Assembly (NCBI GenBank): GCA_964525635.1
Contig: CAZGJX010000085.1
Coordinates: 1-19,674 of the forward strand
DNA: 19,674 bases
Direction: 5' to 3'
From: an uncultured archaeon
GTDB lineage: Archaea; Asgardarchaeota; Lokiarchaeia; Sigyniarchaeales; SOKP01
Under the pieces are notes generated by a model that was given only the letters and a program-made list of their open reading frames with translations, made no database searches and was not told the DNA's origin. A program made the translations under genes and the position numbers. Below, one piece after another: positions 1-16,800 of this stretch. Each line of letters begins with the position of its first letter. Within the stretch, counting starts at the first letter, position 1.

Positions 1-15
1 GTTTTGGAAGTATAA
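1..15 (+). CDS. Possible 3' end of an upstream gene (…VLEV*), partial
   Basis: GTT TTG GAA GTA TAA at 1-15, followed by an A-run and a structured region. Only 4 codons are visible, so this could be chance. Confidence 0.25.
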   Translation, partial: VLEV

Positions 16-22
16 AAAAAAA

Positions 23-92
23 GTGATTGCTTAACTTAATGACATTGCTGTAAAGGGAGGGGTTTTCTTGAGCAATTATGATAAAAACTTAA
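23..92 (+). other. Hairpin-forming element, candidate eukaryote-like SECIS
   Basis: ATGAC (39-43), stem ATTGCT (44-49)/AGCAAT (71-76), AAA (52-54), apical pairing AAGGGA/TTTCTT, 3' TGAT (79-82). An alternative 10-bp helix is 23-32/70-79. The fit to SECIS geometry is imperfect. Confidence 0.3.
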
Positions 93-117
93 AAAAATAT
101 GAAAAAAAAACATAAGG

Positions 118-1224
118 TTAGAGTTGTTGATAGATATTTACACATAATTCTTGTATTTGTTTATAATCATAAAAGTCTTTAGAATTTCCAATCAAGACTA
201 GAGCAAAATTATTGAAATTCATACAAATTGTAGTGAGTTCTTCTCCATTAATTATAGATATTAGCATAATTCTATTAAAGAGCTCTTCACTAGATTTCTT
301 AGAGGCTGTTAAAAAACTAATTGTTTCTGGGATATATTCACTACAATCATATGTTTTATCTATAATCTTCTTAAAAAATATTTTGCCAACTAAATCAACT
401 AAAAACAATTGCTTTATATTATGGTTGAATTTGATAATTTCAAATTTTTCTACTATTTTCTGTGGTTTTTTCAGATATTTATCTTTTGTTTTAAAATAGG
501 GAAATTCAAGGATTTTTTGGCTTTTAAATATGATTTCATTCTCATAAATTTTGGTTATAATTATTTTATTTCTATTTTCTATGAGTAAAAACTTATTTTC
601 TATAGTATTTAATAAAATCCATTTTATTTCTTGATTTAAATAATTTTTATATAATAATTTGGAGGAGTTTACCAATAGAGGAATCAAAAAACTCATTTTT
701 TCTTTATTTATATATTCTTTTGCATGAGTATAAAAGATATTTCCCCCCTTGCTTTCTATAAAGAGTATTGCTTTCAGAGTTTTTTTTTTATCAATTTCTA
801 ATTGTGAATCTCTTAATATATCTAATCCATAATCTATTAGAATTTGAGTTATGATGACATCAAATAATCTAAATTTTAATACATTTCCATTAAATTCTTG
901 ATCTAATTCTTGCTTAAAATTTAATATAAATTGATCCATTACTTCATGAATAAAAGCATGTAATAGTTCAATTATAGTCTCATTTTTAGTTGTAACTACA
1001 AATACAAGTTTTTGAAATAAATCTTCTTTCTTCTCAAATAATATAAGAGTTTCCTTTAATTTTAGAGATTTTATATCTTCTCCTCTTTCTATGGTTGCAA
1101 AACTATTCAAAGCGGTAAGAAATCCACTAATTAAATCATCATTAAAATCTTCATCATTTCCTTTTTCATGCCAGCTATATATTGCTTGACCAGCTTCATT
1201 AATAACTAATAAATCTTCAATCAT
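118..1224 (-). CDS. Multi-domain longin/roadblock-fold protein (Asgard eukaryotic-signature-like)
   Basis: N-terminal longin pattern 'LLVINEAGQAIYS…DDLISGFLTALNSFA…IKSLKL…LILFEK…LVFVVT', then two more beta-hairpin/helix/3-strand units beginning 'LKAILFIESKGGNIFY' and 'IKQLFLVDLVGKIFF'. Confidence 0.7.
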   Translation of the reverse strand: MIEDLLVINEAGQAIYSWHEKGNDEDFNDDLISGFLTALNSFATIERGEDIKSLKLKETLILFEKKEDLFQKLVFVVTTKNETIIELLHAFIHEVMDQFILNFKQELDQEFNGNVLKFRLFDVIITQILIDYGLDILRDSQLEIDKKKTLKAILFIESKGGNIFYTHAKEYINKEKMSFLIPLLVNSSKLLYKNYLNQEIKWILLNTIENKFLLIENRNKIIITKIYENEIIFKSQKILEFPYFKTKDKYLKKPQKIVEKFEIIKFNHNIKQLFLVDLVGKIFFKKIIDKTYDCSEYIPETISFLTASKKSSEELFNRIMLISIINGEELTTICMNFNNFALVLIGNSKDFYDYKQIQELCVNIYQQL

Positions 1225-1245
1225 TTTTAACCATCTATTTGAAGT

Positions 1246-1256
1246 TTTATATAAAA
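1246..1256 (-). promoter_or_regulatory. Candidate archaeal TATA box for the longin gene
   Basis: TTTATATA on the minus strand about 25-30 nt upstream of the ATG at 1224. The AT-rich background lowers specificity. Confidence 0.35.
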
Positions 1257-1330
1257 AATAAAAAGAACAATTATTAATTAATCCAGAGGATTATTAATGT
1301 TTTTGTGAATTATAATGTTTAAATGATATA

Positions 1331-1340
1331 TTTATATAAA
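1331..1340 (+). promoter_or_regulatory. Candidate archaeal TATA box for the CCG gene
   Basis: TTTATATAAA about 30 nt upstream of the ATG at 1369, consistent with a leaderless or short-leader transcript. Confidence 0.4.
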
Positions 1341-1368
1341 ATCTGTGTTTTTATAAAAGAGATCGAAA

Positions 1369-2352
1369 ATGAAAAAGAGAATTAAGGATCGAGAAAATTA
1401 TCCTACTAAGGAAATAGAGCCAGAGAATTTCATATCTGATCAAAAAGTAAAAGAATTAGTTAATAATGTAGAAAACATCAAATTCGAAAAAAAAGACTTC
1501 TACAAGATCTATAATTGTATTCATTGTGGTGAATGTCCAACAGAAGAAAAAAGAATTCAATTAAAACAAATATTTTTAAAACAAGGTTATTCTTTTGAAG
1601 GATGGGAAGAATTAGTTGATAATTTTAAAAAATATAGAACACCTTATCCTACTAATAAAATGCGTATTAAATTACCAGAAGGAATACCAGAGGACTCAAC
1701 AACATTGTTTTTTATGGGATGTTTGTCAACAATCAGAATTCCTAACTATACAGAAAATGCAATTAAATATTTGTTAAAAAAGGAAGTTAATTTTACAATT
1801 TTAGATGAAGAAATCTGCTGTGGATGGCCCTGGTATGTTTCAGGCTCATTAAATGAACTAAATACCTGTATGAGTGAAAATATAGAAATCTTTGAAAATT
1901 ATGATCGAATAATCTGTCTATGTCCTGCATGTTATCATCTATTCAAAAATGAATATTTAAGTATATTAAAAAATAAACCTGAAATAAAGTATATTTCTGA
2001 TTATTTGACTCCAACAATAGAGAAAAAAACAGGAAATGTCGCTTTTCAACATTTATGTCAATTAATGTTTCGAGGAGGGGAGAAGACTGATAAATTTGTA
2101 GAAAACATTTTTAAACAGAGTGGTTATAATATTATTGATATACCTCATTGGTGTTGTGGACATGGAATAGGTAGAATGCATAGAATAGATATTATTGATA
2201 AGATTGGTGAAAAAAGAATAGAAGATTTTGATAAAGACAATATTGATTATGTTACTACTTATTGTGTTAGTTGTTGGTGGTGGCTTGATAGATATGGTAA
2301 GAAATTCAAAATCAAACCAAAAATAAAGGATATCTTTGAATTATTAATATAA
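1369..2352 (+). CDS. (Fe-S)-binding CCG-domain protein, heterodisulfide reductase HdrB/HdrD/GlpC-related
   Basis: CIHCGECP motif, then two CCG units: FMGC…ICCGWP…LCPAC and QHLC…WCCGHG…YCVSC. Confidence 0.85.
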   Translation: MKKRIKDRENYPTKEIEPENFISDQKVKELVNNVENIKFEKKDFYKIYNCIHCGECPTEEKRIQLKQIFLKQGYSFEGWEELVDNFKKYRTPYPTNKMRIKLPEGIPEDSTTLFFMGCLSTIRIPNYTENAIKYLLKKEVNFTILDEEICCGWPWYVSGSLNELNTCMSENIEIFENYDRIICLCPACYHLFKNEYLSILKNKPEIKYISDYLTPTIEKKTGNVAFQHLCQLMFRGGEKTDKFVENIFKQSGYNIIDIPHWCCGHGIGRMHRIDIIDKIGEKRIEDFDKDNIDYVTTYCVSCWWWLDRYGKKFKIKPKIKDIFELLI

Positions 2353-2566
2353 ATATTAAATCATAGCATTAATGATAAAAAAAATAGAAGTTTAAATAGA
2401 AATTAAATCTTATTTAAAAATGGAATTTATAAAGTTAAAACTATCCTTGTTGAATTAATTATTTTATTAAAAATCTCATCAAGCAATTTTATTTTTTATT
2501 AGATAAATAAATATTAATTATAACAATTTCAAATTATTTAAGAGAAAGATAAGAAAGCCTTATAAA

Positions 2567-3259
2567 ATGTTGTTAACAAACTTCGAAAAAGAACTAGTTA
2601 AAAAAGAAATGCAAAAATTAAAAAATAAAATAAGGTTAATAGTTTTTACAGATTTTAAAACTAAGGGAGATGGAAAGAAATATAGAAATTGTTCGATTTG
2701 CAATAGAGTTTTAAATATTTTAAATACATTAGAGAATTCGTCTGAGGGTAAATTAAGCATAGAAGAATTATCAATAAAAGAGAAAATAGAATTTGTTGAA
2801 AAATATAGTATCAAACGAATTCCTACGATTTTATTTTTTAAAGATAACGATGAAGAAATAATAAAATATTCTGCAGGTTTAAATGGTAATCATCTAATTC
2901 CATTTATAAAAAGTATCCAATATCTTTCTGGTATTAATCCTTTCTATAAAGATCAAATCATGACAAATCTTAATAAGATAAATAAATCAGAAATAAAATT
3001 ATTTATTACTCAGACTTGTTCATACTGCCCAGAAGTCATCCCACTAGTTAATTTATTTGCTTTAAATTCTAATGGTAAAATTAAAGTAGAAATTATCGAT
3101 ATCGACACATATCCCGATATAGCAAAGCAATATAATATAACAGGGGTACCAGATACAATGATAAATAAAAAGGAGCATATATATGGTGCATTTACAGCTC
3201 AAGATCTTTTAGAAAAATTAACCAAGGGAAAAAGAGACTTTGGGGGTATGTATTCATAA
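2567..3259 (+). CDS. Protein-disulfide oxidoreductase (PDO; two thioredoxin folds, AhpF N-terminal-domain-like)
   Basis: Two CxxC motifs (CSIC, CSYC), each with a cis-Pro loop (RIPT, GVPD); about 230 aa, the usual archaeal PDO size. Confidence 0.88.
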   Translation: MLLTNFEKELVKKEMQKLKNKIRLIVFTDFKTKGDGKKYRNCSICNRVLNILNTLENSSEGKLSIEELSIKEKIEFVEKYSIKRIPTILFFKDNDEEIIKYSAGLNGNHLIPFIKSIQYLSGINPFYKDQIMTNLNKINKSEIKLFITQTCSYCPEVIPLVNLFALNSNGKIKVEIIDIDTYPDIAKQYNITGVPDTMINKKEHIYGAFTAQDLLEKLTKGKRDFGGMYS

Positions 3260-3278
3260 TTAATTATTATAAATTTAA

Positions 3279-3283
3279 GAGGT
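3279..3283 (+). promoter_or_regulatory. Shine-Dalgarno-like site for the second PDO
   Basis: GAGGT ending 7 nt before the ATG at 3291, as expected for an internal operon gene. Confidence 0.5.
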
Positions 3284-3290
3284 ATGAATT

Positions 3291-3977
3291 ATGAGTTCAG
3301 AAAATGATTATAAACAAATTATACAAAATGAGATGAGAAAACTTAAAAAGAAAGTTAAACTTAAGGTATTTACTTCTTTAAAAACAGAAGTAGATGGCTC
3401 CAAAGTAAGGAAATGTGTTGATTGCGAACAAACAATGCAATTGTTAAGAATATATCAAGAAAATTCAAATGGATTATTAGAGATAGAAGAATTGTCTATC
3501 TATGATGCTCCAGAATATACTAAGAAATTCGACATTCAAAGGGTACCTACAATTATGTTTATTAATGATAATGGTAAAGAAATTATACGTTATTTAGCTA
3601 ATCCTATAGGACAAGAAATCCAACCATTTGTAAAAGCAATATTTGCAATTGGAGGTAGCCCAAATTATTATGAAAATATCCTTAAACAGTATTTAGACCG
3701 AATATCTCCTTCAACAATTAAAGTCATGATAACAATGCAATGTCCATATTGTCCAAACTTGGTCGAAGCAGCAAATTTATTTGCAATTGCATCAGAAGGA
3801 AAGATTCGATCAGTAATAGTTGATATAATGGGAAATCCAGATATAGGTCAATATTATAATGCTTCAGGCGTACCATATACTATCATTAATGAACGGCCAG
3901 CAATACAAGGAATGATTCCCGCTCATGAATTATTGCGTGAATTAATAGGTTCAAATATCAATATTCAACATAGATAG
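3291..3977 (+). CDS. Protein-disulfide oxidoreductase (PDO), tandem paralog
   Basis: CVDC and CPYC motifs with RVPT/GVPY loops. Collinear with the upstream ORF (EMxKLKxKxxLxVFT; ENSxGxLxIEELSI). Confidence 0.9.
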   Translation: MSSENDYKQIIQNEMRKLKKKVKLKVFTSLKTEVDGSKVRKCVDCEQTMQLLRIYQENSNGLLEIEELSIYDAPEYTKKFDIQRVPTIMFINDNGKEIIRYLANPIGQEIQPFVKAIFAIGGSPNYYENILKQYLDRISPSTIKVMITMQCPYCPNLVEAANLFAIASEGKIRSVIVDIMGNPDIGQYYNASGVPYTIINERPAIQGMIPAHELLRELIGSNINIQHR

Positions 3978-4024
3978 AAAATTCTATTTAAATTTATTAT
4001 TATTAAATTTATAAATTTTGTATA

Positions 4025-5185
4025 TTATAGATTTTTAATGCTTTCAGATGATTTTGGATTTAAAGGAACAGAAATTTCAAATGTGGTTCCATTTTCTTCT
4101 GATGTGGTAAAATTAACATTTCCATTCAAATAGGAACTTAATAGTTTCATACTATAAGTTCCTAATCCACGATTTGGACCTTTTGTTGAAAAAGTTCGTT
4201 GAAATATTTGAAATTGAACTTTTTGGGGGATATAACCTTGATTGTTTACCCAAAATTTTAATTTATTTTCTCCAACAATACATCCAATCTTAATAATAGA
4301 ATCGCGGACTACTGCTTCTAATGCATTTTTTATCATATTATCTATAATTCTACTAAGAATTGTTTTATCTGTAATAAAATCTATGCTTTCTGAATTAGGA
4401 TCTATTAAAATTTTAATATTTTTCGATTTTAATTCATCTTCGTAATGATTAATAATATTTTTTAGAAAATCAATAGAATGCAAAGTTATATAATTTAAAG
4501 TAAGATTATTCTGCTCTGCATCATTTAATAATTGTTGAGATAGAATTTGTTCTGTGAGAATATTAGCAAAATAATATAAATTTTTTATATATTTCTTATT
4601 TTCATCTATATTTTTGGAATATTTTAATAAATCAAGCGAAAGTGTTAATCCATTGATTATATTAAGTAAGTCATGAAAAAATATTCTCTCGAGGATACGT
4701 CGTCGTTTTTCATGTCCAATATCTTTAATTGAAACAGAATAAAATTGATCATTATTGATTTTCAAAGGATGGGACCATATCCGCAATATATGCGACTTAT
4801 TGAATTCAGTGACTAGCCTACAATCGTTAATGGCAGGATTTCCTTCTTGACTTTTAAGTATAACATTTAGACATCCACAATAAGGACATACTTTTGAAGT
4901 TCCGCATCCACCTTTTCCTTCTTTAGCACGAATACAATGAAATACCTCTCCAGGTCTTTTACCTGTAATTTCTGAAATATCCTCAATCTCTGCAAATTCT
5001 AAAGCTGCCTTATTCATATATACAACTTGCCTATATTCATTTAAAATCAAAAAAATTATTGGAATTGAATTAAGAATATTATCAATAACAATAAACTTTT
5101 TTAAAGTCATTATCTGATTTTCTAATTTATCATCAGAAGCACGCTGAGAAAGGTTTTTAATATAATTATCTGTTTTTTCTGACAT
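4025..5185 (-). CDS. Cytoplasmic PAS-domain sensor histidine kinase with Cys-rich insert
   Basis: PAS ('VVYMNKAALEF…GKRPGEVFHC'), H-box FHDLLN, N-box NMIKNALEA, IFQRTFSTKG and RGLG. No transmembrane segment seen. Confidence 0.9.
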   Translation of the reverse strand: MSEKTDNYIKNLSQRASDDKLENQIMTLKKFIVIDNILNSIPIIFLILNEYRQVVYMNKAALEFAEIEDISEITGKRPGEVFHCIRAKEGKGGCGTSKVCPYCGCLNVILKSQEGNPAINDCRLVTEFNKSHILRIWSHPLKINNDQFYSVSIKDIGHEKRRRILERIFFHDLLNIINGLTLSLDLLKYSKNIDENKKYIKNLYYFANILTEQILSQQLLNDAEQNNLTLNYITLHSIDFLKNIINHYEDELKSKNIKILIDPNSESIDFITDKTILSRIIDNMIKNALEAVVRDSIIKIGCIVGENKLKFWVNNQGYIPQKVQFQIFQRTFSTKGPNRGLGTYSMKLLSSYLNGNVNFTTSEENGTTFEISVPLNPKSSESIKNL

Positions 5186-5355
5186 ATCTATTATTAGATT
5201 TAAAAATAAATTATTTATTAAAGATCAATAAATAGAAATAAAAAATACATTTTTATAATATTTTATATTTTGAAATAAAAAACAGTATAATATAAACTAA
5301 AATTAATTTTAACTTATTTTATATTATTACCATATAAAAATCTAAAATAAAGATT

Positions 5356-6294
5356 ATGTATAATATTGAAGAATTAGATCCAGATAAAATATATGATATC
5401 ATTATAGTTGGCACAGGAACATCAGGTTTAGGTTGTGCAATATATGCAGCAAGATTTGCAATGGATCTATTAGTAATAGGAAAAGCATACGGAGGATTAA
5501 TAACAACTACGCATATTGTTGAAAATTATCCCGGAATTTCATCAACCACAGGTCCTGAACTGATGGAAATGTTTCGAGAACATATCAATTCCTTGAATAT
5601 ACCTTATATTATGGATGATATACGAGAAATCCACAAGGAAAATGATTATCTCGTATTAAAATCTTTTTTTGGATTCTTTAAAACGAAATCAATTTGTATT
5701 GCAACGGGATCTGAACATAAGAAACTAAATATACCAGGCGAAGTTGAATATACAGGAAAGGGTGTATCTTATTGTGCCACATGTGATGGTCCTTTTTTTA
5801 AAGATAAAGTTGTTGCTGTGATTGGAGGAAGTGATTCTGCAGCTAAAGAAGCCTTATATCTTACAAAACATGCAAAAAAGGTTTATATCATATATCGTAA
5901 AGGGGATATAAGAGCAGAGCCAATTAATAAGCAGAGAGTTCTTGATAATGAGAAAATAGAAATAATTTATAATACAATTATTAAAGAAATAAAAGGAAAT
6001 GAAAAAGTCGAATCAGTTATTTTTGAAAACGATGAAGAATTTACAGTACAGGGTGTTTTTATTGAAATCGGGTCTATTCCCAATTCTAAACTTGCTAAAC
6101 AGATTGGAGTAATTACAAATGAAAAAGATGAAATAATTATAAATAGAAAATCTGAAACCAATATTCCAGGTATTTTTGCTGCAGGTGATGTGGCAGACTC
6201 CCCTTTTAAACAAGCAATTACAGGTGTTGCTGAAGGTGTGATCGCTGCTTATTCTGCTTTTGATTTTCTTAAGAATAAAAAGATTGAATATTAA
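5356..6294 (+). CDS. trxB: Thioredoxin-disulfide reductase
   Basis: FAD motif IVGTGTSG, VENYPG, IATG, active site GVSYCATCDG, NAD(P)H motif VIGGSDSA…YRK, and GIFAAGD. Confidence 0.93.
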   Translation: MYNIEELDPDKIYDIIIVGTGTSGLGCAIYAARFAMDLLVIGKAYGGLITTTHIVENYPGISSTTGPELMEMFREHINSLNIPYIMDDIREIHKENDYLVLKSFFGFFKTKSICIATGSEHKKLNIPGEVEYTGKGVSYCATCDGPFFKDKVVAVIGGSDSAAKEALYLTKHAKKVYIIYRKGDIRAEPINKQRVLDNEKIEIIYNTIIKEIKGNEKVESVIFENDEEFTVQGVFIEIGSIPNSKLAKQIGVITNEKDEIIINRKSETNIPGIFAAGDVADSPFKQAITGVAEGVIAAYSAFDFLKNKKIEY

Positions 6295-6519
6295 CCTTAT
6301 TGATCAATTTCTATTTAAAATAAAAAAACCTGTAGATAAATTATATTAAAAAAAAAAAGGACTATGTGTTTTATTTAATACCTCTAATATATAATTATTT
6401 CATATTTTTTACTTTTTATTACACAAAAATAAATCAGAAATTTGTTAATCTCTCTTATTATTTTAATATATTCTTCATTATAATCATATTCCAATAATTC
6501 GGGAGGGTTGATAAAAAAA

Positions 6520-6648
6520 ATGGATTATAAAATTATTATTCAGGAATTAGAAGCTTTAAAACAATCTGCATCAAAACAAAAATGTATTCCTTTAGCAAAT
6601 AAAATTCAATCTTATATAAATAATATCAAAAACTTCCATAAACAATAG
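6520..6648 (+). CDS. Small 42-aa hypothetical protein (not in the ORF track)
   Basis: MDYKIIIQELEALKQSASKQKCIPLANKIQSYINNIKNFHKQ*. GGGAGGG lies at 6501-6507 upstream and T-tracts lie downstream. Amphipathic two-helix pattern. Confidence 0.5.
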   Translation: MDYKIIIQELEALKQSASKQKCIPLANKIQSYINNIKNFHKQ

Positions 6649-6732
6649 TTTATTTTTAATTATAGGTTTTTTTTTTCTTGAATTTTAAAAATAAAAGATT
6701 TTTAGTATTTATGGTTTATTTCTTGTTATTTA

Positions 6733-7248
6733 CTATGATTGTTTATTTAATTTAGGTAATTCTCTCATTAATCTTTTTATAAATAGTTTATTGTATTCCT
6801 GTTGATTTGGATTAGATTGTACGTAAGATAATATTTTTTTCTTAGCAGGTACTAAATATGGTAAGATTTTATACTCAAAGTATCCTTTTCGTTCTTTAAA
6901 GCCATCTTTAGATTCATAGTTTGGTTCCCGTTCTAGCTTAAAATTAAATGCTATAATAATAAAGGAATCTGTTTTAATTTGCTCTAATAATCCTAATTCT
7001 ACAATAGTTAATATTAAACCATTTTCAAATATACTATTAATTGAGCTGAATTTAAACAATTTCATCTCAGGATGAGTAAAAGCAACATAATTGGGAGTAA
7101 ATAAAACATGAGATTTCCATACGTATTTTTTTTTTAAAAGAAAAAATTTTACTTCACATAAAGTGCTATAAATGATTTCTTCTCCTTCAGGAATCAATTT
7201 ACTCAAATTAGAAAAATTAATAGGTATAAATAAATCTGACATTTTCAA
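6733..7248 (-). CDS. Hypothetical protein, possibly PH-like fold
   Basis: 171-aa ORF with host-like composition. The annotated start is TTG, with an alternative ATG at 7242. 'IPEGEEIIYS…HVLFTPNYVAF' recalls the bacterial-PH pattern (L..gE.i….l.lT..r..f). Confidence 0.7.
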   Translation of the reverse strand: MKMSDLFIPINFSNLSKLIPEGEEIIYSTLCEVKFFLLKKKYVWKSHVLFTPNYVAFTHPEMKLFKFSSINSIFENGLILTIVELGLLEQIKTDSFIIIAFNFKLEREPNYESKDGFKERKGYFEYKILPYLVPAKKKILSYVQSNPNQQEYNKLFIKRLMRELPKLNKQS

Positions 7249-7329
7249 TTTTCTCTATAGGTATTTTTTTATTAAAGATAGTAATCCATTTTTATTATTT
7301 AAATAATATTAATCCAAATGAAAGTACTT

Positions 7330-8217
7330 TTAAATAATAGAATTAGTTAAAATTTCTGAGATATTTTCCCAATATTTTTGTAAATCCCCTTTCATTTTAT
7401 TTTTAATTTTATCTGATAATTCTGCAAAAACCTTTTTTAACATTAATGAATCAAGATAGTTTATTTTAGGAGCAATGACACCTAACATGTATTCCTGTTC
7501 TCCAGATCTTCGACTTTCGTCAGGATAAGAATCAAAATAAATATAACCTTGCTTTTTAATATTATCTATATTTAACAATATCCCTTCAGCTTTAGTAAAA
7601 CCTTCCTGCCCATAGATGGTAGATGCAGCATTGTATAATTGAAAACTAATTTTTTCTATTGAATAGGTGAGTTTTTTTTTAGTTGTATAAAATTCTTTCA
7701 ATTTTGGACCATAAGCATCATCCCATAAAACCCAACATAAAATGATTTCATCCAAATCTTCATCTAAGTTTTCAGTTTGTTTTGATATATTTAATGTAGA
7801 TAACAGGTTAAATATCTCTTTACTGATTAATTGGGAATTTTTTTTTCGTTCCAATTTTCCTTTTATAATAGCAATCAGATCTTCTTCCTTAAATGGTTTA
7901 GTTATATAATCATCAATTCCTAACATTTTACCAAATCTAACGTCTTCAGGGGCAGTTTTTGCAGATAAGAAAATAAATGGTATATGATTCCAACTAGGAT
8001 TTGAAGTTATTTTTGAAAATAATTCATATCCATTCATTTCAGGCATCATTATATCACTAATAATTACTTCTGGAGGATTTTTAAGTGTTAATAACGTTTC
8101 TAATGCTTCCTTACCATTATTTGAAGTAATTACTTCAAAATTATTTAAAGTTAGAATTATCTTTAGATTAGCCAATATATCTTGATAATCATCAATAACT
8201 AAAATTAAAGGTTTCAA
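7330..8217 (-). CDS. Response regulator: REC domain plus C-terminal uDENN/longin-like domain
   Basis: Intact receiver (VIDD, ISDIMMPEMNG, FLSA, TKPF). The C-terminal domain starts IILCWVLWDDAYGPKL. No HTH. TTG start. Confidence 0.88.
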   Translation of the reverse strand: MKPLILVIDDYQDILANLKIILTLNNFEVITSNNGKEALETLLTLKNPPEVIISDIMMPEMNGYELFSKITSNPSWNHIPFIFLSAKTAPEDVRFGKMLGIDDYITKPFKEEDLIAIIKGKLERKKNSQLISKEIFNLLSTLNISKQTENLDEDLDEIILCWVLWDDAYGPKLKEFYTTKKKLTYSIEKISFQLYNAASTIYGQEGFTKAEGILLNIDNIKKQGYIYFDSYPDESRRSGEQEYMLGVIAPKINYLDSLMLKKVFAELSDKIKNKMKGDLQKYWENISEILTNSII

Positions 8218-8283
8218 TGGATGAATTCTTTAATGAATGATTTTAATATTTAAAATTATAATATTATCAAATATAAACTATTT

Positions 8284-10215
8284 TTATGTTTTTTTTCTTG
8301 GTATGAAAATTGAAAAAATTGATCCTTTATCTAACTCACTTTCAACGAATATATTTCCACCATGAAGTTCTATATATTCTTTTGCGATTGCTAAACCAAG
8401 ACCTGTTCCCGGAATATGATTTACTCTTTCTGATCTATAAAATCGTTCAAATAAATTCGCTAAATCTTTTTTATCCATACCAAGACCATGATCCTTAAAT
8501 TTAAATAAAACTCCATCAAGATTATTAGGATTAAATTTACCTACATAGTTATTAATAATTTTAATCTTAAATTTCGTGTTATTTTTAGAATATTTTAGAC
8601 CATTATCAATAAGAATTCTAAAAATTTGATTGAATTTATGTATATCTCCATAGAGTATTACATTATTATCATGCTTAACAGAAATAATGTTATTTTTTGA
8701 TTGAATTCTGAGCTCCATTGCTTTTATTATGTTATGCATTAGTTTTATAGGATCAAACTTTTCTTTTTTTAATTTTATTTTCTTTTCATCAATTTTTGAG
8801 ATAGTTAATAAGTCATCAATTAATTCCACTAAAATTGTCGTATTCCGAGTAATACTATCAATTAATTCGGTTTTTTGCTCTTCAGAAATTTTATCTTTAT
8901 ATTTATTTAAAAGCTCGGTTGATTGTAATAAAACAGTAGTTGGAGTTCTTAATTCATGGGATGCTGTAGAAATAAAGGATTCAAGACGACTTTCTGCTAA
9001 TTTACGTTTAGTTATGTCTGTGAAAGTTTGAATCATACCTAATACATTCCCTCCGGAATCTTTCCAGGGTAATGTATATATAAGATAAATTACTCTTTTT
9101 CCACTAGGTAAAATTCGATTTACTTCATATTCTGAATAATTCTCACCAGATTTTATTTTTTGAAAAGAACATTTTTTTGTATTGCATACGTGGCCAGGAC
9201 TTACTTCATAACATTTTTTACCTAATAATTCTTCTTTTTTTACCTCAAAAAATTGAGTATATGTATCATTAACTCTTATAATATTATTCTCATTATCAAT
9301 CACTCTCATGGGTAATGATGCATTAAAAATTTGATCAAATTCTACATAAGCTTCTTCTAAATCATTTGCTTTTTTTATTAAATTTCGTTCACTTAATTTT
9401 AGCTTTCGAAATAATAAGTTAAAAGGATTTTCAAATCCTGTTTCTATTATTGCTTTATAAACAAAAAAAGCTGCCATAATTTTTAATAAATGACCTAAAA
9501 AGTTTGAAAAATCATATACTTCAATATAAAATGTGAATGCTATTTCAGATATCATCGTTGCAATAATTGAGAAAACAAGAAAATACAATATTCTTTTATT
9601 TATTCTTTTATTGAATTCATTCCAAAAAATAAATAAAAGAATTAGAGCTATTAATAAAATAATATCAATTATATACTCACTGACGATTTTAAATAATGTT
9701 AAACTTTTATCTTCCTCTATATAACAAGTTGGGAAAATTCCTTGAAAAATTAAAAACAACAATATTGATGTTATAACAGCATAACTCAACAGAATTAATT
9801 TTGGATTTAATTTTTTATTTTTTGAAATAATAGCAAATATAATTGAAATCGACTGGATGTATCTAGCACAAATCCATAAAGAAGTAGGTAAATTAGTATC
9901 ATAATCGACAAAAACGCCCATTCCATCATAAGATAGAGTGTGAAGTAAGTCTAAAATACCAATAAAAAGATATGAGGTTCCGAGTATTAAAAATGATGAA
10001 CCTTCCATATATTTATTTGCATTCCACCCGATAATAAAAATGCATCCAGAAATAATAATGCTAAAGAGCTCTGCAATCGAATGAAACAGAAGATAATTAT
10101 AAATGGCAGTTAAAGATATACAAAATAAGCCTAAACCTAATATAAGATATTCAATAATATCATTTCTAAGAATTTTTTTATTGAAAAGTTCTGAATGATT
10201 CTTTTCTATTGTCAA
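8284..10215 (-). CDS. Membrane sensor histidine kinase: MASE3 + PAS + HisKA + HATPase
   Basis: MASE3 signature 'YNYLLFHSIAELFSI…LDLLHTLSYDGMGVF…LW..ARY…GHLLK' with about 8 hydrophobic segments, PAS ('IIRVNDTY…LLGKKC…FTDITKRK'), SHELRTP, DNGLKYS, DHGLG, FERFYR and GTGLGL. TTG start. Confidence 0.93.
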   Translation of the reverse strand: MTIEKNHSELFNKKILRNDIIEYLILGLGLFCISLTAIYNYLLFHSIAELFSIIISGCIFIIGWNANKYMEGSSFLILGTSYLFIGILDLLHTLSYDGMGVFVDYDTNLPTSLWICARYIQSISIIFAIISKNKKLNPKLILLSYAVITSILLFLIFQGIFPTCYIEEDKSLTLFKIVSEYIIDIILLIALILLFIFWNEFNKRINKRILYFLVFSIIATMISEIAFTFYIEVYDFSNFLGHLLKIMAAFFVYKAIIETGFENPFNLLFRKLKLSERNLIKKANDLEEAYVEFDQIFNASLPMRVIDNENNIIRVNDTYTQFFEVKKEELLGKKCYEVSPGHVCNTKKCSFQKIKSGENYSEYEVNRILPSGKRVIYLIYTLPWKDSGGNVLGMIQTFTDITKRKLAESRLESFISTASHELRTPTTVLLQSTELLNKYKDKISEEQKTELIDSITRNTTILVELIDDLLTISKIDEKKIKLKKEKFDPIKLMHNIIKAMELRIQSKNNIISVKHDNNVILYGDIHKFNQIFRILIDNGLKYSKNNTKFKIKIINNYVGKFNPNNLDGVLFKFKDHGLGMDKKDLANLFERFYRSERVNHIPGTGLGLAIAKEYIELHGGNIFVESELDKGSIFSIFIPRKKT

Positions 10216-10241
10216 ATCTATCTATCATATAAATTTAATAT

Positions 10242-10796
10242 TTATATGTTTATTTTTTGAAATACTGTATATATTGAGGTTTTTTGGATGTTTAAATTTA
10301 GTTTAGGAGAATTTAATCTATGTAGATTATCGATTAACTTTTTTATTTTTTTCTCATCAATTTTATTTTGAAAAATTTCTATGTCTGGATCCCATTTATG
10401 CAAAAATATAGATAAAACTACATTATGATTATTATCAATAATAATATTTATAATTTCATTTAAATAATTTAATGCTAAATCAAATCTCTTTGAATCTTGA
10501 ATATCAATTACATAGATTATTTTATTAACTTCATTTATATGAAATTTTAAGTTGACAATATTATTATTTCTATATTGTTCTTGCCCTCCATAATCCCATA
10601 TTGTATATTCTGATCCTAATGTTTCAAATATTTCCATTTCGATTCCTTTTGTGGGATTTAATGAAGAAAAAGACTCAAGGTTTTTTACTCCTCTTAAACA
10701 AAGAACAATTGAGCTTTTACCACTGTTATCCAATCCTAAAATTAAGATTTTTTTTTTTAAGCTATTTATATTATTTATATTTGTATTATTTTGCAT
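10242..10796 (-). CDS. Ras-superfamily small GTPase (Arf/Rag-like, Asgard type)
   Basis: G1 GLDNSGKS, G2 PTKG, G3 WDYGGQ, G4 HKWD, G5 TSIY. Confidence 0.92.
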   Translation of the reverse strand: MQNNTNINNINSLKKKILILGLDNSGKSSIVLCLRGVKNLESFSSLNPTKGIEMEIFETLGSEYTIWDYGGQEQYRNNNIVNLKFHINEVNKIIYVIDIQDSKRFDLALNYLNEIINIIIDNNHNVVLSIFLHKWDPDIEIFQNKIDEKKIKKLIDNLHRLNSPKLNLNIQKTSIYTVFQKINI

Positions 10797-10836
10797 GCTT
10801 AATTGCCCTTATAAGATTTCTTTTAATTCTAATATT

Positions 10837-11229
10837 CTATAGAAGTGTGTCATAAATATCCAAATCCCTTAAGTTCTTTATTTGTTCTTTATTTGTTTCA
10901 AGAACAAAAGCTTGGATATTAGATAATATTTCAAATATCCCCTTATTTTTTACTAAATAATAATTAATAGTTTTTGAAATATTACTTATCTTATTTGGCT
11001 TTTTAGGATTTTCCATTTCCAATATGACTTCTTTTTGATAAAAATCAACCAATCCATTGTTAATTAATATTTTTAAATGTTGTGAGATTGTTGATTGAGA
11101 TTTGTTTAAATGTTCTTGAATCTCTGAAGATGATTTCTCTTTATTATTAATCAATTGAAGAATTTCTAATCTCGTCTGGTCTGCAATTATCTTAAGAAAT
11201 TTAACAATTAATTTCCTTATTTCACTCAT
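10837..11229 (-). CDS. ArsR/SmtB-family winged-helix transcription regulator
   Basis: 'LKIIADQTRLEILQLI…SSSEIQEHLNKSQSTISQHLKILINNGLV…YY'. Confidence 0.92.
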   Translation of the reverse strand: MSEIRKLIVKFLKIIADQTRLEILQLINNKEKSSSEIQEHLNKSQSTISQHLKILINNGLVDFYQKEVILEMENPKKPNKISNISKTINYYLVKNKGIFEILSNIQAFVLETNKEQIKNLRDLDIYDTLL

Positions 11230-11483
11230 TAGAATATAAATACTGTAATGGAAAATTAATGAGTTTTATTACTTTTAAAAGTTTTTTTAATAAACTATTA
11301 ATAGAAATAATCTCAATCTATTCAACTTAAAATATAAAATATGATTTTAACCAATCTATATTTTTTTCTTCAGATCCAAATCTTTATATATTATGATAAC
11401 TTTTTATTAAATCGCTCTATCGTTATATGTTAATGTATCGATAATATATATATTAATTATAAAATTTAGGGATATAAAAAGTT

Positions 11484-11987
11484 ATGACTCAAGTATTTGA
11501 AATAGATGATATTGATAAATCTATTATTGAGATAGTTCAAGAAGAACCTAATCTTACCCACACTCAAATTGCTAAAAAAGTAAATAGAAGTCAACCGACT
11601 ATTGGGATGAGGATCCGAAAATTAGAAGAAATGGGAGTATTAAAATATCAAGCAGGTATAAATGTAAAAACTGCAGATTTAATTTTGGGATTTGTTGAAT
11701 TAGACACATTAAATCCAAAATTAATTGAAAAATTAATTGAATCTTGCCCATATATGATAAATGGATTCAGAAAAAGTGGAAATTTCAATTACACCATCCT
11801 TATTGTTGGAGATACTTTTCAACAAATTGATCAAATTATTAATACTCATTTCAGAAACAATCCAAATGTAAACCGTGTTGTTTTAAATATTGTAACTAAT
11901 ATTGTTAATGATTTTGTGTTATCTATCAATTTTAATTCTAAAGAATGTGAAAATTCTTGTACAAAAGATTTTTGTGGTATTTTATAA
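11484..11987 (+). CDS. Lrp/AsnC-family transcription regulator
   Basis: 'IDDIDKSII…LTHTQIAKKVNRSQPTIGMRIRKLEEMGVLK' HTH, RAM-like domain (SGNFNY) and a Cys-containing tail. Confidence 0.9.
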   Translation: MTQVFEIDDIDKSIIEIVQEEPNLTHTQIAKKVNRSQPTIGMRIRKLEEMGVLKYQAGINVKTADLILGFVELDTLNPKLIEKLIESCPYMINGFRKSGNFNYTILIVGDTFQQIDQIINTHFRNNPNVNRVVLNIVTNIVNDFVLSINFNSKECENSCTKDFCGIL

Positions 11988-12083
11988 TAAAATTTTTTTA
12001 ATTTTTTTAACAAATTTTTTTAAAGTTAACAGGACTGATTTTTAATGAATTAAATTATTTTAATAAAAAAGAAGGAAAAAAAA
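11988..12083. terminator. Probable bidirectional oligo-T terminator region between convergent genes
   Basis: Several T6-T8 tracts on the + strand after the Lrp stop, and A-tracts (T-tracts on the minus strand) next to the Hsp20 stop. Confidence 0.5.
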
Positions 12084-12392
12084 TTATTGAATAGTTATTT
12101 CAATAGCATCTTCCATTGGATCTTTAAATGGAACATCAACCTTTAATAATCCATTTTTATAGGTAGCTTTTGCTTCACTTGGTTTAACAGGACAACATAT
12201 AGCATAAGAACCTGTAAAAATTGAAGAATCGGTTTCTCCTCTTATAAAAAAGCTATCTTCTAACATTTTTAGGGAAATGCTATCTTTATCGACGCCAGGT
12301 ATTTCTACTTCTATATGGTAATTAGAATCGTCTTCCTCAATATAACCATGTATATTTGGTGATATAATAACTCTTTCTTTTTCTTCTGCCAT
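12084..12392 (-). CDS. Hsp20/alpha-crystallin small heat-shock protein (minimal, almost no N-terminal arm)
   Basis: 'YHIEVEIPGVDKDSISL…KATYKNGLLKVDVP' and C-terminal IxI motif (EITIQ). GGTG lies upstream. Confidence 0.9.
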   Translation of the reverse strand: MAEEKERVIISPNIHGYIEEDDSNYHIEVEIPGVDKDSISLKMLEDSFFIRGETDSSIFTGSYAICCPVKPSEAKATYKNGLLKVDVPFKDPMEDAIEITIQ

Positions 12393-12884
12393 TTTAATGC
12401 ACCATAATAATATTAATTATAGATTTCTGTTTAAAATAGAGAAACTTAAAAATTTAAATGTTAGGACTATAAAATATTAAAATATTCGGTGAACTACTTT
12501 AATTATTTTTATATTTAAGAGAAATTCTTTTATTTTATAAATTCTGAATTATAAGTAACTTAATTTCATTTAAAATTAAAAGTTTTATAACATAGAAATT
12601 TATAAATAAGTTTAATTTTTAATGATAATATTGTTGCCAGATTATCTTTTAAAAATTACACCTAAGTTTTTAAATAACAAACTCTAATCTTATAACTTAT
12701 AATTTATAGTCCTTTATTTAAAGATTGAATTAATTTATTCTCTAATCCACCAATCAGTAAATGATCAGATTCATAAGAATTATAAAAATAAAATAAGAAT
12801 CCATATTGAAATAGGGTAGGAATAAAGAAATGAATGAATAAATTAATAAGTTTAAATTGCTGAATATATATATTTATCATAGGA

Positions 12885-13856
12885 ATGCGGAAATTTAGAG
12901 TAAATGACTATATTGAATTAAGGTTAGAGCAAGGAAAAACGCAGATTTATGTAGGCGGACGTTCTTTTCTGAAATGTAAATATGTGCTATTGATTAATCC
13001 ACATGAAAGAACGGAGCAATGGGATATTGACTCTATTGACGAAGCAATGAACAAGCTAGGTCAGCAACTTGAAAATCGACCCCCATTAGATAAATGGGGC
13101 AGACCAAGACCATTGGAAAATCCAATAACGCCCCAAGATATAGGAATAACGCCCGAAGAGGAATTCTGGGCACATTGCTCAAATCTGCAAGCATGGGTCG
13201 AAAACGATTATGATACGAGAATTATTCATAGTAATTTGGCATTTCCCTTACTTAGGGAGCTAGCGAAGGTAAGTGCCCCTTTAGCAGAATTTCGATTAAA
13301 GGAAGAAATTATCAAAATGCTAGAGCGCGAATATCAACCCACAATTGAGTATTTAGCGGACATGTGCTACTGGCTATACCTCACGGAGGAGGAAATACTT
13401 ACAACAAGACTTAAATTAGATGAGGTAGAAGCAGTATATGAATTAGAAAGACTTATCGGCAAGAAGCTTCGCATCTATTATACTGAAGATGCCAAAGACT
13501 ATGATCAATTTATGCTTGGATATAGCTCAACAAAAAAAGAACAATTCATATACATATGTGATAAGCATGTCCTCATATGTGACCTTATAGATTGTAATTT
13601 AGAAGAAATACCTGAAGTAATCCTTAAATTTCCTGAACTTAAATATCTCACTTTATTTATAAATAAAATAAAGGAGATACCTGAATTTCTAAAGAAAATG
13701 AAAAATTTAGACACTTTATTTCTCATGAACAACGAGATAGAGACTGTTCCCAATTGGATCGATGAAGTACCATCCTTACGATTATTATATGTAGATGGAG
13801 ATCCATCTAAGCACGAGGAAATAAAAAAAGGTAAGGTAACCATCATTAAATATTAG
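12885..13856 (+). CDS. Leucine-rich-repeat protein with a Lokiarchaeia-type conserved N-terminal domain
   Basis: N-terminal 'KFRVNDYIELRLEQGKTQIYV…CKY…ITPEEEFWAHCSNLQAWVENDYDTRIIHSNLAFPLL'. The C-terminus has 3-4 LRRs of 23 aa (LxxLxLxxNxIxxIPxxL). Confidence 0.85.
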   Translation: MRKFRVNDYIELRLEQGKTQIYVGGRSFLKCKYVLLINPHERTEQWDIDSIDEAMNKLGQQLENRPPLDKWGRPRPLENPITPQDIGITPEEEFWAHCSNLQAWVENDYDTRIIHSNLAFPLLRELAKVSAPLAEFRLKEEIIKMLEREYQPTIEYLADMCYWLYLTEEEILTTRLKLDEVEAVYELERLIGKKLRIYYTEDAKDYDQFMLGYSSTKKEQFIYICDKHVLICDLIDCNLEEIPEVILKFPELKYLTLFINKIKEIPEFLKKMKNLDTLFLMNNEIETVPNWIDEVPSLRLLYVDGDPSKHEEIKKGKVTIIKY

Positions 13857-16800
13857 AGATATCCTAATTTATTCGCAATATACTTACTATAATCGTCAAT
13901 TCTACTACTAAGATATGCAAGATACCACAAAATATCAGTTTTACCTTGACCAGATGTCAAAACCATATTATTCTGAAAAGCATCTCTTATTATCCAATCC
14001 CTAAAAAAATTTCGATTGGGATCTGGAAATGATTCCCCTAAAATATCTACTTGCAAAGTATAAAAAGTATCTATTTTTGTATTATGAGGCAATGAAAAAA
14101 CATCTCCTCTGTCGATAAATCCTTCGCGTGTAAGACCGCAGATCCATTCTTCTATTCTCAGACGATGATCTGATGGTTTATTGGTAGGATTTTGAAAATC
14201 ATATCCTTCATATAAATCGTTATTAATTTTTGTAAACCCTACAATACAATCAAAGCTATTAATCAAATAACCTAAATGCATTAAAAGGTAAAAACTATTC
14301 GACTCAGAAAAATCAATTTCAATAAAATGGGAAGTAAGCCCTCCATCTTGGCTCGATATCCGAAGCATTTCATTACGAGTAGTATCTGTCTTTTCTGGTA
14401 AGTGAAGATAATATCCCCCTAGATCTCTTGCTGGAAATAATATAAAAGCCCTAACTCCAGAAAGCAGTAATTTATTTGTAAAAAGATCTTCCATTCGAGA
14501 GGTAAATTCGATAATATCCCCTTTTGCCATCAATCTCCTGATTTCTGTAGGAGAAATAGATTCTTTACCACTTAGGTACTCAAAGTCTCTGGTTAGGTCT
14601 GTGTACCACGAGAAGGGGATCATTTTAAGGTCATCTTTACAGAGGCGTAAGGTAAGAGGGGTAGTATCCTTTCCTCTCGTCCTAATTGGAAGTTGGATAT
14701 CTTCTATAACTAACTCAGTTAAGGAACTCTTACTTTCCATAAAATCATTTATAAAGCCTCTTATTGTCACGCCAGAACCAGATCTAATATGATTCATATA
14801 ATGAAAAACACCTTCTCTTAATGTGCGTGCTAATTTCAATTTAAGTGCAACCTTTTCACCTTGAGGCACATGTAAATAATCAATCTCGGTCTCGCCTAAG
14901 TGAAGAAGATAATTAAAAAGCGGAGTCATATCCTCCTCAAATTGATGTATTATATCCCGTGTACCATAATTTGAAAACTGATCTCTGAATATGTTAGCTA
15001 AAATAGTTGAATAATACTTTCTTATGGTCTGAGTTGATCCAGCTCGCAATGGAGAAAGATCTTGATTCTGAATTCCGAGAATTGGGCCGATTCTCGTTGT
15101 TAAATCAAAGTTTTTACCTGAATCTAATTGAATTCGTATTGCTGGATCGAGGAAGAATAATCCATACAAAATTTCTAATGTATTTCTTGAATCACTAATT
15201 CTTTTTGGGATGGCTCCTTGTCTGGTGGATTGTACTCTAAATCCTATATGAGAAAGTCGACTACTTAAAGTCTCTTTGAAATCACTCATAATAAAGATGG
15301 GACGATCTTCTATAACAATTCCTACTAAAGGATCGGGAAAGTCTCCTAAAAAGGTATAATAATCAATCATATTAGCACAAGCTAGTTTAATGGTAAATTG
15401 ACCAAAAATATCCATAGCAAGGTCCAAAACGAGTTGAGCAAGCTCTGCTTCTTTTTCAGTAAAAGTCTTTTCAAAAACATTAAATTGAGATTCGTGATCA
15501 GGAATTGCGATATAATCATTTAAAAGTTTTCGAGCGTTATTTATTACTGGATCATTGTATTTATAGAATCTAAAGGTAATTATTTTATTAAAAATCTCAT
15601 TTAACCATAATTTTGCTGTAAACTCCTCTTTAGTAGAAGAACCATCGGGATAAGTTATAATTTCGGAACTTCTAAAAGTATCGTCCTCATTTTTCCATAT
15701 AAAACGTAAGAAAGAATCCATATCAAAATAATCATTCTCATCTCTAAAAAAATGATTTATTCTATTATCAATTTCACGAATGGTTGGACCCTCTAAAAAG
15801 TTCATGTATGTATAATCTGTAACATACCCATTCAATATTGAATAATATTGATGAATAATTGGATTTACATGCTGGGCTTCACCTACACTGCCTTCAGGTC
15901 TGAATAACAAATCAAATATTCTATAATAATTATCTACGAAATTTACTCCATATGTACTTATTAGTTTTGCTCTCTCAAATGATTCATAATTTGTATGTAT
16001 CATTGATCTTCTTTCCATTATAGTCGGCCCATCAATATATGAGTCGTGTGCTCCAGTTGGAATGATATTAGAACTAACATCCTGTAAGAAACATGTTAAT
16101 TTATTCTGAGTCTTCCAAATAATGGAACGTAGATATGAGAATCTATATATCTCATTTATTTCTGTACCTATGAACTCCTGCTCTTTTGTATGAAGAGTCT
16201 CCATTATTTTGTTAATTAATTCTTGACGCGTCAAGATTTTAATCTCTTTAGATTGAGTATCAAGATATACCCGTCCTTCGAGTAGGATACCATCACTATT
16301 GGTGATAAAGACACCCTCAATTCCTTCATTATTATCCATATTATTAAGACCTTCTTTTACACCTTCAGGTAGTTTTAATACCATTCCATCAGGTGTTGCA
16401 AGACCATATTCTATATGCTTATCGCCATTATTATCGACAGTAACCTTATGTACGACAATCCAAGCGCGCTTAAAATCGAAACTATTTGGAATTTCGCTTA
16501 ATTCCTTAGTAATATAATTATTACCTTCTTTTACAACAAAGAAATCTATATTGGATAAATCCGTCCTACTGATCTGTTGACCTGTTGACCTATAAACATT
16601 GAATGTGATATCCCAAGAAATTTTATAAAATCCATTTTCATCTTTTATTAAGAGTAAATCTAAAAACTCTACCCATCTTCCCTTATCTTCAATTCTACTT
16701 TGACAGAATAACTGATTAACTTCAAAAAGCCGAGTGTCAAGAGAGGAAGGGCTATATATTTTCAACGCTTCAGCCTTAATGGACTCCTTGAAATTCTCAT

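Follow-up and report, generated by a model that had tools for sequence, protein, structure and literature searches.

In eukaryotes, Rag and Arf GTPases are turned off by longin-domain complexes, namely folliculin, GATOR1 and C9orf72-SMCR8, which govern mTORC1 and the lysosome and carry mutations in cancer syndromes and in amyotrophic lateral sclerosis/frontotemporal dementia (ALS/FTD). We analyzed a 19,674-nucleotide stretch of DNA (the window) from an uncultured archaeon of the class Lokiarchaeia (assembly GCA_964525635.1, contig CAZGJX010000085.1, positions 1–19,674), which encodes a response regulator whose output domain is predicted to be a longin of the kind found in those complexes. Structural modelling and analogy with the eukaryotic proteins suggest that this regulator may act as a phosphorylation-gated GTPase-activating protein (GAP) for a GTPase encoded beside it, a reading to which we assign a probability of about 0.5.

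Fusions of NPRL2-like longins to two-component domains have already been reported in Asgard archaea (Liu et al., bioRxiv 10.1101/2020.10.19.343400; Nature 2021). That report reads them as a prokaryotic input into a Rag-type pathway, with Asgard growth control still centred on two-component systems with eukaryote-like regulators, and places most eukaryote-like genes outside conserved neighbourhoods. Asgard "FLCN/SMCR8-type" longins carrying a GP motif and an arginine finger were reported in 2025, with the identity of their partner GTPases posed as a question and with no mention of receiver domains, response regulators or two-component systems (PMC12290439). In a structural study of 2024, Tran et al. 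stated that MK-D1 GTPase genes generally do not lie in operons with roadblock or longin genes, so that partners are hard to assign (PMC10933270).

The regulator gene and the parts of its product are as follows.

7330–8217, minus strand: receiver (REC)-longin response regulator, whole gene, 295 codons and 295 amino acids, TTG start at 8217, stop codon at 7330–7332.
7333–7755, minus strand: predicted longin domain, residues 155–295 (AlphaFold2 domain model and structure searches).
7705–7725, minus strand: W165-D-D-A-Y-G170-P171 motif of the strand 1–2 loop (conservation in 80 homologues; C9orf72/NPRL2 spacing).
7504–7521, minus strand: D233-E-S-R-R237-S loop between strands 4 and 5, with R237 as candidate arginine finger (conservation; FLCN/NPRL2 parallel).
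7756–7842, minus strand: linker, residues 126–154 (full-length model: helix at 111–140, predicted local distance difference test score (pLDDT) below 50 at 135–153).
7843–8217, minus strand: receiver (CheY-like) domain, residues 1–125 (Pfam PF00072, E 1.3e-24, residues 5–118).
8053–8055, minus strand: phospho-acceptor D55, a conserved receiver residue.

The coding part (7333–8217, minus strand) translates into 295 amino acids, the TTG start agrees with homologues that begin MKPLIL, and full-length homologues are about 295 amino acids long across Asgard lineages. The interval 7330–7760, which an earlier reading of the letters (the first-pass annotation) had singled out, corresponds to residues 153–295 plus the stop codon.

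An AlphaFold2 run on the C-terminal part alone (residues 150–295), using an 80-sequence alignment (A2), gave a mean pLDDT of 89.5 and a predicted template modelling score of 0.86. In this model a helical turn of 4–5 residues precedes the order strand-strand-helix-strand-strand-strand-helix-helix, which is that of longins, and the full-length AlphaFold2 model has the same elements, with strands at residues 159–166, 170–177, 211–217, 222–232 and 240–249 and helices at 187–205, 254–272 and 279–291, the last two being long helices after strand 5. The protein ends four residues past the last of these helices and has no DENN or NPRL2 C-terminal domain.

A Foldseek search of the PDB placed the longin domain of the Lokiarchaeal Roadblock-Longin protein (8yqg) at the top (E 1.4e-4), and the other leading matches were a chain of the FLCN-FNIP2 complex (6ulg_N), GATOR1 subunits, DENND10, the active FLCN complex, Lst4 and the yeast SEA complex. 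VIA-align, a Foldseek-independent search of 48,161 chains, gave the highest Z scores to C9orf72 (12.1; 7o2w_A), folliculin (11.8; 6nzd_H), 8yqg (11.7) and Lst4 (11.7), the first two chains being identified from their PDB sequences, followed by sedlin (10.3), SMCR8 (10.3), NPRL2 (9.6), VAMP7 (9.6) and DENND1A (9.5); SNARE, adaptin and roadblock domains ranked behind the GAP-class longins and 8yqg. GAP-class longins lay ahead of other longins by 1.5–2.5 Z units, a gap that supports the subclass assignment without deciding it. The models and searches support a C-terminal longin nearest to C9orf72, folliculin, Lst4/FNIP, SMCR8 and NPRL2, and the best explanation of the output domain is a non-DNA-binding longin of the folliculin/NPRL2/SMCR8/C9orf72 class.

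The first-pass annotation had proposed a longin-type topology from a handful of peptides, all of which are present: IILCWVLWDDAYGPKLKEFY (residues 158–177), IEKISFQLYNAASTIYG (187–203), GILLNI (212–217), QGYIYFDSY (223–231), DESRRSG (233–239) and YMLGVIAP (243–250). Its secondary-structure guess agrees with the AlphaFold2 models, which predict the topology it expected, and Foldseek and VIA-align place the domain among longins rather than with an unrelated known output domain. Its label, uDENN/NPRL2-FLCN-type, held for the longin fold and the GP signature; in place of "uDENN" we prefer "GAP-type longin" because no DENN core follows and the GP motif is reported to be absent from DENND-family proteins. 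The "D..aRG"-like loop that it placed before the last strand is likewise present as D233...R237.

Among the 80 homologues, W165, G170 and R237 are each found in 80/80 and P171 in 79/80, with D167 in 77/80, D166 in 71/80 and D233 in 64/80. The WDDxxGP motif is not a chance occurrence. Eukaryotic reference motifs were read off PDB sequences, which give W33-D34-x3-G38-P39 in C9orf72 (residues 26–48), F15-x4-G20-P21 with R78 directly before the last strand in NPRL2 (residues 5–84), and D160-S-L-A-R164-G165, five residues ahead of W-Y-S-I-I, in folliculin (residues 148–181). W165-D166-x3-G170-P171 therefore has exactly the C9orf72 spacing, and G170-P171 lies at the start of strand 2 in the same register as G20-P21 of NPRL2 and G38-P39 of C9orf72. 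The D233-x3-R237 loop lies six residues ahead of Y-M-L-G-V and parallels the folliculin arginine-finger loop: R237 appears as an invariant arginine in the strand 4–5 loop, in a D-x3-R pattern like D160...R164. Because loops 1–2 and 4–5 lie on the same edge of the usual longin sheet, it is plausible that R237 adjoins the GP loop in space. The GP motif is reported to mark GAP-type longins (FLCN, NPRL2, SMCR8 and C9orf72), in which it adjoins the arginine finger, and to be absent from DENND-family proteins; the two features occur together in some Asgard longins (PMC12290439). ARF GAP activity is abolished by C9orf72 W33G/D34K and, separately, by mutation of SMCR8 R147 (PMC8213707).

Sequence searches with the C-terminal 140–150 residues gave no informative match in Pfam, NCBIfam or PDB sequences (phmmer and profile searches returned chance-level rows only), and the Pfam families NPR2 (PF06218), Folliculin (PF11704) and C9orf72-like (PF15019) had no match, with the threshold set as loosely as E 10, in the regulator or in its 80 homologues; membership among GAP-type longins is thus argued from predicted structure and motifs. 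In the source genome as a whole, the Pfam NPR2 profile found nothing, and the only longin picked up by the Pfam Folliculin profile is a different one that is fused to Rag-like GTPases. On contig 8 (1231–2088, plus strand, running off the locus), this longin is fused N-terminally to a Rag-like GTPase. It carries D-E-D-G-P and D-T-M-A-R-G, 28/28 collected orthologues match Pfam Folliculin (best E 4.6e-6), and the fusion occurs in 80/81 genomes of the family, mostly as open frames of about 470–500 amino acids. A language-model look-up, which offers leads only, returned NPR2 in 19% of one Asgard cluster (0.91), together with LST7 and C9orf72-like clusters (0.75–0.76).

The receiver domain scored 86.9 bits against PF00072, compared with a curated cut-off of 30.2, and 31 homologues conserve D9 (or E) and D10 of the acidic pocket, D55, T/S85, Y104 and K107. 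In the full-length model it adopts a (beta-alpha)5 fold at a pLDDT near 90, and its last helix runs on to about residue 140 before a low-confidence stretch. The receiver that had been placed ahead of the C-terminal domain is borne out as a canonical PF00072 match with all phosphorylation residues kept, and the linker after it is helical in its first part. The protein is presumed to be the cognate response regulator of an adjacent MASE3-PAS histidine kinase.

The regulator gene comes fourth in a run of five genes on one strand, with successive spacers of 40, 26, 66 and 81 nucleotides; the other four are listed here.

10837–11229, minus strand: ArsR-type helix-turn-helix gene, first in the cassette (Pfam HTH_5, 3e-16), directly upstream of the GTPase gene, as in 49/80 loci.
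10242–10796, minus strand: 184-amino-acid Rag/Arf-like small GTPase without a roadblock domain, the candidate target (Pfam Arf 5e-21, Gtr1_RagA 6e-20).
8284–10215, minus strand: sensor histidine kinase, MASE3-PAS-HisKA-HATPase by Pfam, presumed cognate, 66 nucleotides upstream of the regulator.
6733–7248, minus strand: 171-amino-acid open reading frame (ORF) of no family, 81 nucleotides downstream of the regulator.

The closest relatives are Asgard archaeal assemblies throughout, the overall G+C content is 27.5%, and a kinase homologue is present in 76/80 related loci. No second longin gene was found within the cassette. The 171-amino-acid ORF was dropped as a fifth cassette member: it has no Pfam or NCBIfam match, and none of the 80 related loci, the three closest relatives included, has a homologue by tblastn at 1e-5. 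It is probably lineage-specific and outside the cassette.

The cassette GTPase matches the Arf and Gtr1/RagA Pfam families about equally. Its closest solved relatives are the Lokiarchaeal RagA-like 8yl2 (7.5e-24) and 8zla/9m28 (2e-17), with Arl and Arf proteins (about 1e-10) and human RagA (1.5e-9) more distant. In a 49-member alignment, the P-loop, T49, the catalytic glutamine of D-x-x-G-Q72 and the H-K-x-D motif, which we take to be the Rag/Gtr form of G4, are invariant, and the retention of Q72 is what one would expect if the arginine finger is supplied in trans. Across the whole source genome, the profile of the cassette GTPase has 21 matches at E 1e-10 or better, a large set of Rag/Arf-like paralogues. 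A good number of them sit in open frames of 300–500 amino acids, which implies fusions to other domains.

A Rag-like GTPase gene lies within 6 kb of the regulator in 57/80 loci, upstream on the same strand in 49 and in other positions or orientations in 8, so that these 8 of the 57 are rearranged yet still linked. In the remaining 23/80 loci no GTPase was seen: in 18 the contig stops too soon for a decision, and only 5 that have 4 kb or more of flanking sequence are without the gene. The source genome also holds a second receiver-longin gene on contig 80 (L082; 915–1829, plus strand, 304 amino acids), which converges on a gene for a 184-amino-acid Gtr1/RagA-like GTPase (1826–2380, minus strand) with a 4-nucleotide overlap; no kinase gene is visible in the 900 nucleotides upstream of this second regulator. 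A histidyl-tRNA synthetase fragment follows the contig 80 pair.

Phylogenetic trees of 58 regulator-GTPase pairs revealed well-supported clades common to both proteins. The second copies of two assemblies (L082 and L077) form a deep, long-branched pair in both trees, with Shimodaira-Hasegawa-like approximate likelihood ratio test (SH-aLRT) values of 100 and 99, and stand apart from the cassette-type copies of the same genomes in both. Because the trees share these clades, the L082 and L077 pair included, regulator and GTPase appear to have duplicated and diverged together, a pattern that is supportive and not decisive. Structure prediction of a complex of two longin copies with the GTPase, GTP and Mg scored 0.70, and a control with an unrelated protein in place of the longin scored 0.69; because the control scored as high, the prediction gives no verdict either way.

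An exhaustive hidden Markov model search of 1.84 billion cluster representatives returned 255 proteins at E 0.001 or better. Among the 149 matches listed, 66 are 280–320 amino acids long with the longin domain C-terminal, and the shorter ones look mostly like fragments. At E 1e-10 or better, 151/400 genomes of the phylum have a match, including 118/134 in the source genome's own family and 20/22 in another, and the homologue records name Promethearchaeota and Hel-, Hod-, Hermod-, Odin-, Thor- and Heimdallarchaeota. The receiver-longin family is Asgard-specific. One 11-kb contig labelled "Candidatus Nanopelagicaceae bacterium" (L071; DATKTW010000054.1; G+C 30%) holds a complete ArsR-GTPase-kinase-regulator cassette with proteins about 50% identical to those of the source cassette; this contig is probably of Asgard origin and was placed in a bacterial bin.

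The same longin subfamily is also fused directly to a Ras/Rab-like GTPase (P0056) and to an Arf-like GTPase (P0077), and further architectures comprise kinase-receiver-longin hybrids, HATPase-longin, RsbRD_N-longin and DUF1638-longin (the alternative-architecture proteins being P0042, P0047, P0056, P0077, P0069, P0073 and P0160). The W-D-[DE]-x2-G-P and arginine loops are kept in both GTPase fusions and in all of the others except the HATPase-longin P0160, in which no arginine-loop match was found.

In the mechanism that we propose, the histidine kinase would phosphorylate D55, and the phosphorylated receiver would change how the longin oligomerizes or how exposed it is, most likely by promoting its homodimerization; the presence of a C9orf72-type WD-GP motif and an FLCN-type arginine loop in one chain suggests such a homodimer. 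The dimer would then bind the roadblock-less Rag-like GTPase encoded two genes upstream, with the W-D-x3-G-P loop forming part of the GTPase-binding pocket and R237 stimulating GTP hydrolysis as an arginine finger. From the gene, its domains and predicted fold, the conservation of its motifs, the genomic linkage and the co-divergence, we infer GTPase binding, GAP rather than guanine nucleotide exchange factor (GEF) activity, the finger role of R237 and the mode of phosphorylation gating. Counted in favour of this mechanism are the fold, the motifs and their literature, the receiver, the linkage, the second copy, the co-divergence, the GTPase fusions and Q72. The broader proposal, that this is a minimal archaeal forerunner of Rag-GATOR1/folliculin signalling in which a kinase-gated homodimeric longin GAP, with both motif types in one chain, acts on a roadblock-less Rag-like GTPase, is more tentative, and we would give it somewhat less than even odds.

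Several points weigh against a GAP. Eukaryotic longin GAPs are heterodimers with large partner subunits, and those partners are absent from the regulator cassette. No Pfam, NCBIfam or PDB sequence profile ties the longin domain to NPR2, Folliculin or C9orf72. Alignment of A2 with the folliculin-like Asgard longins (A4) by hhalign set GP on GP and R237 on the arginine of D-x-x-A-R-G over 120 columns, but its score fell short of significance (E 0.05, probability about 1%); the motifs line up in the expected register, and sequence does not demonstrate homology to Pfam Folliculin. Neighbouring genes also co-diverge through shared inheritance, so that matching trees are no proof of interaction. Finally, GEF and scaffold functions prevail over GAP functions among longin and roadblock platforms (PMC10933270). 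In an alternative about half as probable as the GAP reading, the longin engages the neighbouring GTPase as an exchange factor, scaffold or effector platform of the Mon1-Ccz1, TRAPP, DENN or MglB type and phosphorylation controls recruitment, not hydrolysis. Linkage and GTPase fusions fit this explanation as well as they fit a GAP, and the longins of Mon1-Ccz1, TRAPP and DENND1 match the domain at Z 8–10 in VIA-align. However, the GP motif and the strand 4–5 loop arginine, essentially invariant in the 80 homologues, are reported as marks of the GAP subgroup that are absent from GEF longins (PMC12290439).

It is less probable still that the longin is a generic dimerization, protein-binding or small-molecule-binding output acting on another target, with the linkage reflecting co-regulation only. 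Weak Foldseek matches to LOV/PAS, GAF and LuxR-type ligand-binding domains (E about 0.01–0.03), which share the sheet-plus-helices core, agree with such a role, as do the five loci with full flanks and no nearby GTPase and the fusions of the same longin to RsbRD_N and DUF1638 domains. Yet the linkage outlasts rearrangement and duplication, direct longin-GTPase fusions exist, and the surface-loop positions that do not vary correspond to catalytic and interface residues in longin GAPs. We set aside, as barely credible, a Roadblock/LC7 (MglB-like) or other profilin-like fold whose GP and arginine motifs would be family-specific structural features. Longin and roadblock share a common core, and roadblock domains, those of MglB and Asgard archaea included, match at Z 7–8 over about 100 residues, whereas longins score 2–5 Z units higher and span about 130–137 residues; moreover, the domain starts with a strand hairpin and ends with two helices, whereas the roadblock order has a helix first and a single helix last. 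On topology and Z score the roadblock assignment was rejected.

Beyond the cassette, the G+C content of the window climbs from 22–25% to 29–35% at about 13 kb (about 12900–19674), and the following frames were seen.

118–1224, minus strand: ORF of 368 amino acids.
12885–13856, plus strand: leucine-rich-repeat protein, in the right-hand block of higher G+C.
13853–19672, minus strand: giant open frame of at least 1,939 amino acids that runs off the window, in the same right-hand block.

The cassette offers a regulator and its likely target that can be tested as a pair, with D55 phosphorylation as an on/off handle, and thereby a small soluble protein set for testing the origin and minimal mechanism of longin GAPs. 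If the forerunner proposal were true, the cassette would provide Asgard archaea with their first GAP and GTPase that can be assigned to each other, and arginine-finger longin GAPs would predate eukaryotes. The gain is modest: longin/two-component fusions as a class were published in 2021, and GAP activity is a prediction. The output domain had initially been called no standard response-regulator output class, which stands for response regulators generally and needs amending for Asgard archaea, where longin/two-component fusions are published. Beyond the general statement of Liu et al., no description of the receiver-longin motifs or of the Rag-like GTPase cassette was found in the literature, which is weak evidence because most subscription papers lay outside the search.

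Compared with known systems, the regulator is of the same kind as the fusions of Liu et al., in which an NPRL2/folliculin-type longin is joined to two-component domains in Asgard archaea; the accessible part of that report gives their domain architecture (Fig. 5c), without the receiver-longin family, the W-D-x3-G-P and arginine motifs or the Rag-like GTPase cassette. The Lokiarchaeal Roadblock-Longin protein 8yqg shares the longin fold (Foldseek E 1.4e-4, Z 11.7), and its solved longin is a dimer. Both 8yqg and the longins of PMC12290439 are stand-alone or roadblock-fused, whereas here the predicted longin serves as the output domain of a response regulator whose gene is linked to that of a candidate GTPase. 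Among bacteria, comparable modules are Myxococcus MglA-MglB with RomR/RomX and the actinobacterial conservons (kinase-like CvnA, roadblock CvnB, CvnC and GTPase CvnD), in which a small Ras-superfamily GTPase, a roadblock/longin-superfamily regulator and kinase or receiver parts act or are encoded together; in these systems the regulator is a separate roadblock protein where ours has a longin joined to the receiver, and the GTPases are MglA-type, not Rag/Arf-like.

With FLCN-FNIP (acting on RagC/D), GATOR1 NPRL2-NPRL3 (RagA/B) and C9orf72-SMCR8 (ARF), the regulator shares the predicted longin fold (Z 9.6–12.1), the GP motif after strand 1, the WD of C9orf72, an arginine in the loop before the last strand and a presumed client of the Rag/Arf type. 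It differs from them in lacking a DENN or NPRL2 C-terminal domain, a gene for a heterodimer partner and any significant profile match, and in its presumed control by a receiver domain in place of nutrient-sensing complexes. Set against the rare pairing of GTPase and regulator genes, the receiver-longin family appears to be an exception that keeps beside it, and duplicates with, one Rag-like GTPase.

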